Assembly (NCBI RefSeq): GCF_003334385.1
Contig: NZ_QOWN01000198.1
Direction: 5' to 3' (one strand)
Source: Escherichia coli
GTDB lineage: Bacteria; Pseudomonadota; Gammaproteobacteria; Enterobacterales; Enterobacteriaceae
DNA: 336 nucleotides
This document shows positions 1 to 336 of the stretch, piece after piece. The position numbers and the translations under genes were made by a program. The notes under the pieces are model-generated. The model ran no database searches, was not told the DNA's origin, and saw only the letters and a list, made by a program, of their open reading frames with translations. Position 1 is the first letter of the stretch. Each line of letters begins with the position of its first letter.

Positions 1-27
1 GGCGACGCCGCCCTGACCACATCGTAG
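1..27 (+). CDS. Possible 3' end of an upstream protein-coding gene (partial; C-terminus ...GDAALTTS, stop TAG 25-27); product unknown
   Basis: Frame 1 reads GGC GAC GCC GCC CTG ACC ACA TCG TAG. It is open from the window edge to the TAG at 25-27, with GC-rich third positions typical of a coding frame. Only 8 codons are visible, so this is weak. Frame 2 (stop 14-16) and frame 3 (stop 58-60) cannot be excluded. Confidence 0.3.
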   Translation, partial: GDAALTTS

Positions 28-34
28 TGTTTAA

Positions 35-63
35 ATGTCATGAATCCTCCCGGTCGGGATAAT
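35..63 (+). promoter_or_regulatory. Candidate sigma70-type promoter: -35 ATGTCA (35-40), 17-bp spacer, -10 GATAAT (58-63); predicted start near 70
   Basis: The hexamers match the TTGACA/TATAAT consensus at 4/6 and 5/6 with the optimal 17-bp spacing. This is a pattern match only; there is no experimental or comparative support. Confidence 0.25.
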
Positions 64-143
64 GTTGTGAGTCAGATGAGGGGCGGGCTGAAGTCCGGAA
101 GTTACAGGACAATGGCAGGAGGAAGACTACAGCCCGCAATACG

Positions 144-168
144 AAAAAGGCCGCGCAGTTGCGCAGCC
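144..168 (-). terminator. Minus-oriented intrinsic-terminator-like hairpin: GGCUGCGC-AACU-GCGCGGCC followed by UUUUU
   Basis: On the minus-strand RNA the stem (plus coordinates 168-161 pairing with 156-149) is 8 bp including one G-U wobble, with a 4-nt loop, followed directly by U5 (plus 148-144) and then CGUAUU. On the plus strand the same stem has a C/A mismatch and no U tract, so the orientation signal favours minus. Confidence 0.4.
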
Positions 169-195
169 TTATGAATTCTGGTTAAAATCCATTCG

Positions 196-201
196 ATTAT
201 A
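196..201 (-). promoter_or_regulatory. Perfect -10 hexamer TATAAT on the minus strand (plus sequence ATTATA); no convincing -35 or TG extension
   Basis: This is an exact consensus -10 in an AT-rich context, about 30 nt upstream (minus sense) of the minus-oriented terminator hairpin at 168-144. The -35 candidates (CAACAG or GCAACA) are poor. A chance TATAAT in an AT-rich window of this size is not unlikely. Confidence 0.2.
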
Positions 202-223
202 AAAATGTATATCTCATGCTGTT

Positions 224-250
224 GCCCGAACCCACTCGGGCTTTTTTTTT
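224..250 (+). terminator. Rho-independent (intrinsic) terminator, plus strand
   Basis: GCCCGA (224-229) pairs perfectly with TCGGGC (236-241), with a 6-nt loop ACCCAC, immediately followed by T9 (242-250). The upstream flank is not A-rich, so the signal is oriented for plus-strand transcripts. Confidence 0.85.
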
Positions 251-254
251 GCCC

Positions 255-280
255 ACAAGAAAGCCCCTCCGGAGAGGGGC
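255..280 (-). terminator. Probable intrinsic terminator for a minus-strand transcript entering from the right
   Basis: A perfect 7-bp GC-rich stem, GCCCCTC (263-269) with GAGGGGC (274-280), has a 4-nt loop. On the minus-strand RNA it is followed by UUUCUUGU (plus 262-255). On the plus strand it is followed by GGAGAGUGG with no U tract, so orientation favours minus. It sits about 12 nt downstream of a possible minus-strand stop codon (293-295). Confidence 0.45.
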
Positions 281-292
281 TGGAGAGTGGCG

Positions 293-336
293 CTATGTGC
301 CATTGCATGGTGCCGGGTGCCTCCCGGTGAGTTCAG
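293..336 (-). CDS. Possible 3' end of a minus-strand protein-coding gene (partial; C-terminus ...ELTGRHPAPCNGT, stop TAG = plus 295-293); product unknown
   Basis: This minus-strand frame is open from the window edge to a TAG whose reverse complement is CTA at 293-295, with the minus-oriented hairpin 12 nt downstream. Only 13 codons are visible and one is a rare AGG. The alternative frame with TGA at 333-335 is also possible. Very weak. Confidence 0.2.
   Translation of the reverse strand, partial: ELTGRHPAPCNGT

Follow-up and report, generated by a model that had tools for sequence, protein, structure and literature searches.

The window, the whole 336-nt stretch of Escherichia coli DNA analyzed here, lies in a lambdoid prophage, downstream of the antiterminator gene Q, where it spans the intergenic DNA that separates a cargo ("moron") gene from a nanS-p esterase gene. 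Several E. coli chromosomes carry it at 100% identity, 2,371 of 5,426 complete E. coli genomes contain partial matches, and 357 phage records match it, most of them Stx-converting phages. Read along the window's minus strand, the prophage at the EC2 locus has the order Q, DNA methyltransferase, tRNA-Ile, tRNA-Arg, a cargo CDS annotated 'tolA' and then the window, followed by a SASA carbohydrate esterase of the nanS-p type, DUF1378, DUF826, holin and lysozyme. This prophage has no stx. Every CDS annotated in the 6 kb to each side of the window is on the minus strand, which we therefore take to be the strand of the late operon. In the Stx2a phage phi191 the homologous region sits between stxB and the nanS-p homologue, annotated nanS, and stxA, stxB and nanS are likewise all on one strand. 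The cargo gene at the position of stx (L001 6567-6995, 142 aa) carries the annotation 'cell envelope integrity protein TolA' but probably represents a moron that has a TolA-like repeat, not a true tolA. RefSeq leaves the window's intergenic region blank, as it does in thousands of E. coli genomes. Our analyses assigned the following features to the window:

1-41, minus strand: start of the CDS of a nanS-p-type SASA carbohydrate esterase (ATG at 41-39, Shine-Dalgarno GGAGG at 50-46), from the RefSeq annotation of an identical locus.
137-170, minus strand: second minus-strand intrinsic terminator, predicted from the scan and folding (10-bp stem at 170-147, tail UUUCGUAUUG).
159-188, plus strand: candidate sigma-70 promoter of an anti-sRNA (-35 TTGCGC at 159-164, 18-nt spacer, -10 TAAAAT at 183-188; start at C194).
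194-250, plus strand: AsxR/AgvB-family anti-sRNA gene of ~54-57 nt (variable 5' seed at ~194-209, linker UAUCUCAUGCUGUU, terminator hairpin, U9).
224-250, plus strand: intrinsic terminator of the anti-sRNA, predicted from the scan and folding (6-bp stem with five G-C pairs, 6-nt loop, T9).
251-336, minus strand: the 3' 86 nt of STnc100 (Rfam RF02076), an EcOnc27-type sRNA whose gene extends out of the window as far as what would be position 460.
254-281, minus strand: STnc100 terminator, predicted from the scan, folding and covariation (8-bp stem with tetraloop at 281-262, interrupted U-tract UUCUUGUG at 261-254).
255-290, minus strand: possible outer 4-bp helix enclosing the STnc100 terminator (CCAC 290-287 with GUGG 258-255), present in the Rfam consensus and in folding.

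A consensus scan for terminator-like sites and promoters, run over the 336 nt with dinucleotide shuffles as the control, returned four terminator-like sites representing three distinct hairpins, compared with 0.3 +/- 0.5 sites in the shuffles. In the plus-strand hairpin GCCCGA (224-229) pairs with TCGGGC (236-241) around the loop ACCCAC, and T9 follows at 242-250. In the facing minus-strand hairpin 281-274 pairs with 269-262, giving AGCCCCUC-UCCG-GAGGGGCU and then UUCUUGUG in the RNA, or AGCCCCTC-TCCG-GAGGGGCT and then TTCTTGTG in the DNA. Eleven bases (251-261) lie between the end of T9 and the base of the minus-strand hairpin. The third hairpin, 170-147 on the minus strand, has the tail TTTCGTATTG in the DNA. 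All three sites, 224-250 (+), 281-254 (-) and 170-137 (-), combine a G+C-rich stem-loop with a U-tract, as Rho-independent terminators do; by sequence and structure they are stop signals, with termination activity predicted.

Folding gave -23.5 kcal/mol for minus-strand 251-290 (z -4.23, with none of 200 shuffles as good) and -18.3 kcal/mol for minus-strand 140-176 (z -4.98). For plus-strand 194-250 the 224-241 hairpin was present in both the MFE and the centroid structure (z -2.23, as good in 5 of 200 shuffles). The initial annotation had proposed two back-to-back convergent intrinsic terminators at this place, which the scan, the folding and the conservation described below bear out; the minus-strand hairpin that it put at 255-280 is present, with its coordinates shifted to 281-254. 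The stem of the plus-strand hairpin is short (6 bp), and AT/GC-patchy intergenic DNA might in principle yield inverted repeats by chance. We regard such an origin as having next to no probability, given four sites where 0.3 were expected, z-scores reaching -4.2 and -5.0, and the conservation of the hairpins, with compensatory changes, across hundreds of phage and prophage copies.

The plus-strand hairpin forms the end of a match to the Rfam AsxR model (RF02703), which covers the full model (1-53) over 194-246 with 63.0 bits, exactly at the gathering score of 63. The AgvB model (RF02702) fell short of its gathering score of 56, with 43.4 bits. From this sequence match, the 224-241 hairpin is identified as the predicted terminator of an AsxR-type RNA. 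The layout of the AsxR/AgvB family was also present: a ~42-nt conserved 3' region with a terminator hairpin, preceded by 16 nt of distinct 5' sequence. C194 is the counterpart of the RACE-mapped 5' end (CGAU...) of AsxR and AgvB in Tree et al. 2014, and the gene occupies the family's position, as a member of a convergent pair between the moron CDS and the downstream ORF, 3' of Q (L001). The hairpin and U9 predict a 3' end at ~247-250, in support of the earlier proposal that any plus-strand RNA stops at about 250. The U-tail at this end would be expected to serve as the binding site for the proximal face of Hfq.

A sigma-70 promoter at 159-188 likely drives the anti-sRNA. It was recognized by eye and by its conservation, the hexamers TTGCGC and TAAAAT being shared by loci of the AsxR, AgvB and other types; the consensus scan passed this promoter over, as its -35 matches the consensus at only 3 of 6 positions. 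The 3' arm of the 170-147 terminator holds the TTGCGC at 159-164, the likely -35 element, and terminator and promoter would thus overlap. In E. coli NCTC9112 a copy 99% identical to the window (L123 701-1034) has TAAAAC in place of the -10 TAAAAT (window position 188) and T8 in place of T9; this copy may be a variant with a weakened promoter.

Two opposed hairpins with U-tracts have the look of a boundary between convergent protein genes, and the initial annotation had treated the site as such an ordinary arrangement. We consider it highly improbable that the hairpins end the mRNAs of two facing protein genes, as no plus-strand protein gene ends at the site, the sole plus-strand unit is the ~55-nt sRNA, and phi191 is the same. 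The flanking CDS are all on the minus strand, and the hairpins end an AsxR-family anti-sRNA and STnc100. The proposal that the terminators separate two transcription units holds for the two sRNA genes; it does not hold for the minus strand as a whole, which we infer from lambdoid biology to be a Q-antiterminated late operon that needs read-through.

The view that nothing in 102-308 is translated was upheld. A 68-aa minus-strand ORF (308-102) crosses two RNA genes and a T-tract that varies between T7 and T9; in NCTC9112 the 99%-identical copy breaks it up (T8 for T9, together with a 1-nt deletion at 188), and phi191 has no counterpart. A 41-aa plus-strand ORF (205-330) was rejected too, being frameshifted in the 99%-identical copy and absent from phi191, and the T-tract being polymorphic in length.

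On the minus strand the Rfam STnc100 model (RF02076, gathering score 47) gave 70.9 bits for a match that is cut by the window edge (251-336), and 179.1 bits for the full-length gene in the source genome (L001 6251-6460). The 281-262 hairpin corresponds to the terminal stem of this model. The start of STnc100 lies ~75-110 nt past the stop codon of the moron gene or of stxB. Upstream of L001 6460 we found TTGACA at 6474-6469, with no convincing -10 at 16-18 nt. The northern probe used for EcOnc27, GGCCTTGGTATATGCCTAATCTCTGTATACTGCAT, falls in the phi191 segment that aligns with the STnc100 3' part of the window, and EcOnc27 is therefore the STnc100 homologue. The U-tract of the STnc100 terminator is interrupted (UUUCUUGU) and poorer than in many relatives, and termination at this hairpin may for that reason be inefficient. 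The outer helix (290-287/258-255) was just 74% paired across relatives and has been replaced in many copies, which gives it weak support. Copy number varies at some loci: one IMG/VR contig (L037) has five STnc100 copies (4984-5196 and 6956-7937), four of them in a head-to-tail array, and another (L005 351-1028) has two.

Conservation was studied in stretches collected from IMG/VR with a 26-nt core motif of STnc100. The motif retrieved 120 stretches, 108 of which could be extracted in register with the window, giving 109 loci with the window included. Related prophages and phages have kept both hairpins, 224-241 (+) and 281-262 (-). In 52 of the 109 loci a plus-strand hairpin followed by a T-tract lay within 45 nt of the STnc100 terminator, an undercount since the Sp5-type STnc100 stem is imperfect and escapes the simple scan, and a further minus-strand terminator downstream, as at 170-147, was found in 50 of these 52 convergent-pair loci. 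In an alignment of 22 distinct sequences (A1) the STnc100 stem (helix 58-66/76-83) was paired in 94.9% of cells, and four of its eight pairs showed changes on both sides, the compensatory changes including G-C to A-U, U-A and C-G to U-A. The covariation score for the three helices together was 0.239, compared with 0.118 +/- 0.014 in shuffles (reached by 0 of 500) and no more than 0.083 in slid controls; slid controls for the whole three-helix structure were at most 54% paired.

At the plus-strand slot, MAFFT put the hairpin types out of register (62% paired), which made column-wise covariation uninformative for the plus-strand hairpin, and each type was instead folded independently. At least five unrelated hairpins occupy the slot in relatives (GCCCGA/UCGGGC, GCCCGCG/CGCGGGC, ACCGCUC/GAGCGGU, GCCCGUAU/AUGCGGGC and GCCCGC/GCGGGC), each followed by T6-T9. 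Unrelated hairpins with T-tracts in one slot are the pattern that would be expected of a functional terminator slot. In two IMG/VR contigs both members of the pair matched Rfam models: STnc100 at 687-892(+) abuts AsxR at 894-946(-) in L002, and STnc100 at 12336-12528(+) abuts AgvB at 12529-12590(-) in L007. Five other loci (L026, L037, L074, L041 and L091) have, at the equivalent of 190-250, other short modules of promoter, hairpin and T-tract without an Rfam match at the gathering threshold. These modules in the convergent slot are probably further anti-sRNA-like families absent from Rfam.

It had also been suggested that the A9 upstream of the plus-strand hairpin, as read on the minus strand, could turn 241-224 into a second stop that catches read-through on the minus strand. 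In favor of this, folding works just as well for the minus-strand version of the hairpin (-11.4 kcal/mol), and an A-tract and a T-tract flanking a single hairpin are the signature of a bidirectional terminator. The A9 is indeed present, as the mere complement of the plus-strand U9. After 241-224, however, the minus strand continues as AACAGCAUG; this following sequence, AACAGCAUGAG, holds no U-tract, the scan made no call there, and the z-score of the minus-strand fold was -1.63. A canonical, conserved minus-strand terminator, 170-147, lies 55 nt further on. A bidirectional role for 224-241 is accordingly very doubtful. The pattern of a bidirectional terminator was absent from the other hairpin as well, 262-281 on the plus strand being followed by GGAGAGUGG. 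The window shares with the bidirectional terminators of convergent genes an A-tract and a T-tract between opposed units, but its two hairpins are distinct, and a U-tract follows each of them in one direction only.

Based on the sequence, structure, conservation, family membership and genomic context described here, we are confident that the hairpins are the Rho-independent terminators of two convergent, abutting sRNA genes that lie in the late part of a lambdoid prophage, its "moron" region. A convergent sRNA pair at the moron site has already been published. Tree et al. 2014 mapped Hfq-bound RNAs in E. coli O157:H7 Sakai by Hfq cross-linking and 5' RACE and described "convergent sRNA genes" at the site of moron insertion, which follows the Q-antiterminated PR' (PMC4104026). 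Their example is the pair of EcOnc02 (AsxR) and EcOnc27, 3' of stx2B in Sp5, with similar pairs in Sp3, 4, 9, 10, 11, 15 and 17 (PMC4104026). Zhu, Shabalina and Storz (bioRxiv 2026) reported STnc100, AsxR and AgvB around prophage esterase genes downstream of Q, with STnc100 related to PasD. It is from these two reports that we consider the arrangement already known.

What can be said about expression, size and Hfq dependence of the window's RNAs is by analogy with the homologues in the literature. The Sakai anti-sRNAs are 51-60 nt by northern and consist of 14-18 variable nt at the 5' end and ~42 conserved nt at the 3' end (PMC4104026). EcOnc27 was mapped to 1268411-1268490(+), with ~235/247-nt forms of which the 247-nt form is destabilized without Hfq, and it is faced by the 54-nt EcOnc02/AsxR at 1268494-1268542(-) (Table S2, PMC4104026).

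The window's RNA and AsxR (EcOnc02, RF02703; Stx2 phage Sp5) occupy the same slot, antisense to the late operon between moron/stx2B and nanS-p and facing STnc100. They share the promoter hexamers, the 5' start CGAUUAU and an identical hairpin, GCCCGAACCCACUCGGGC. They differ at two positions in the 3' part, the AsxR linker being GCAAUU where the window has GCUGUU, and AsxR has a U6 tail where the window has U9. The stretch that runs from UAUCUCAUGCUGUU to the end of the hairpin is identical in the window and in EcOnc03 of Sp9, as printed by Tree et al. (Fig. S4, PMC4104026). Both EcOnc03 and AgvB (EcOnc01) have the ~42-nt conserved 3' region in common with the window, but their 5' seeds differ, and the window is without the CACAACA repeats by which AgvB mimics GcvB. 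The minus-strand RNA resembles EcOnc27 of Sakai Sp5 (STnc100; related to PasD of EPEC) in its position after the moron CDS and in its terminator architecture. It differs in the 3'-terminal ~50 nt, which is mosaic; the window's version, …CUGGAGAGUGGCGCUAUGUGCCAU…, also recurs beside other types of anti-sRNA.

For the working of the locus we propose the following. Transcription from the putative promoter at ~159-188 would give a ~55-nt AsxR/AgvB-family anti-sRNA that is released at ~247-250 by the 224-241 hairpin and U9; the hairpin and U-tail would double as its stabilizing 3' module and Hfq-binding site. In the opposite direction STnc100, of ~210 nt and starting beyond the window, would end 7-9 nt after the 281-262 stem, at ~253-256. 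The 3' ends of the two RNAs would then lie a few base pairs apart and not overlap. In the lysogen, the three terminators, including 170-147 on the minus strand, would limit transcription to the two sRNAs and leave nanS-p and the lysis genes silent. Lying between the sRNA pair and nanS-p, the 170-147 terminator would serve as a back-up, suitably located to stop polymerases that run past the STnc100 terminator. After induction, in lytic growth, Q-modified polymerase from pR' would pass the terminators to reach nanS-p and the lysis genes. We infer the exact 3' ends, the promoter and the Q read-through for the window's own prophage. In Stx phages, Q-modified polymerase from pR' reads through downstream terminators and the late genes, including nanS-p (z1466), are strongly induced (PMC8065619). 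In this respect the window is like lambda-type tR' and StxS, where intrinsic terminators in the late operon are there for Q-modified polymerase to pass and terminated products can act as sRNAs. Lambda-type tR' differs in lying directly after pR', whereas the window's terminators are several kb downstream, after a moron, and paired with an opposing sRNA gene.

These same terminators raise the question of whether insulation of the late operon is the primary role of the site, with 281-262 and 170-147 keeping moron/stx and un-antiterminated transcripts out of the nanS-p/lysis cassette and the RNAs arising as by-products. There are two serial minus-strand terminators just upstream of nanS-p, both kept in 50 of the 52 loci, and STnc100 begins soon (~75-110 nt) past the stop codon of the moron gene or of stxB. 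Stx phages are known to antiterminate downstream terminators through Q, and StxS, a by-product of pR'-tR', is a precedent for terminated late transcripts becoming sRNAs (PMC8065619). However, STnc100/EcOnc27 and the anti-sRNAs are abundant and Hfq-bound, and AsxR and AgvB have demonstrated targets (PMC4104026). The body of STnc100 is also conserved well past its terminator (179 bits), and insulation leaves the plus-strand gene unexplained. We therefore hold insulation as the primary role to be possible but rather unlikely; it complements the explanation by an sRNA pair more than it competes with it.

The anti-sRNA of the window is an unnamed allele. Its 5' seed (194-209) is CGAUUAUAAAAAUGUA; the nearest is that of AsxR, CGAUUAUUAAAACGAG, which differs at 4 of the first 16 nt. 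The window's seed occurred in 42 IMG/VR contigs and in ~150-180 of the 5,426 complete E. coli genomes; at >=95% identity the allele was present in ~180 of these genomes and was never annotated. The carriers are often non-Stx prophages of extra-intestinal or commensal strains. A literature search of searchable texts found no paper that prints the sequence string of this allele.

Pairing with two candidate partners was examined with RNAduplex. The identity of the FnrS sequence was verified; nt 1-11 of AsxR with the FnrS terminator loop (UUUGAUGAGUCG) gave -7.7 kcal/mol, no better than shuffles. The window's allele with FnrS gave -5.0 kcal/mol, U8 to A breaking the 11-bp helix of AsxR, and was likewise no better than shuffles. 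With GcvB, the window's allele gave -12 kcal/mol compared with -22 kcal/mol for AgvB, the positive control. Neither FnrS nor GcvB thus yielded anything above shuffles for the window's allele, whereas the AgvB-GcvB control stood out. We tentatively speculate, as a minority possibility, that the plus-strand RNA is a distinct, unnamed anti-sRNA allele whose altered seed redirects it from FnrS to another core-genome sRNA, and that the terminator-flanked slot is a cassette in which prophages swap sponge specificities by recombination at the terminators.

In 39 copies of the window's allele the T-tract had seven to nine T. Five of 19 distinct allele copies had single substitutions that weaken the plus-strand stem (such as GCCCGA to UCCCGA, UCGGGC to UCAGGC or UCGGUU); loci with plus-stem variants in IMG/VR were L135, L136, L130, L147, L149 and L161. 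These weakened hairpins, like the altered -10 box of the NCTC9112 copy, suggest from their sequences that the gene may be decaying in some prophages.

The significance of these findings beyond correct annotation is small: two Hfq-type sRNA genes and three terminators are placed in a blank region. Their recognition sets the RNA boundaries (plus strand 194 to ~250, minus-strand end at ~253-256), marks the 68-aa ORF as spurious and flags an uncharacterized anti-sRNA allele in non-Stx prophages. In addition, the module offers a clear natural case of sRNA genes that terminators confine within an operon expressed under Q antitermination only.

Some minor observations concern the sequence around these genes. 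The spacer at 242-261 is quasi-palindromic (T9 GCCCAC AAGAAA). Where the A and T runs are longer, as in relatives such as L007, the spacer of a read-through RNA is predicted to form a further small hairpin. On the plus strand, a sigma-70-like match at 35-63 (ATGTCA, 17 nt, GATAAT) runs antisense across the nanS-p start codon; with one such match found and 0.2 expected, it is probably due to chance. The 5' leader of nanS-p (window 42-146) differs from phi191 at 4 of 105 positions, whereas 251-303 is highly divergent or mosaic, and the conserved leader might contain a regulatory element of its own.
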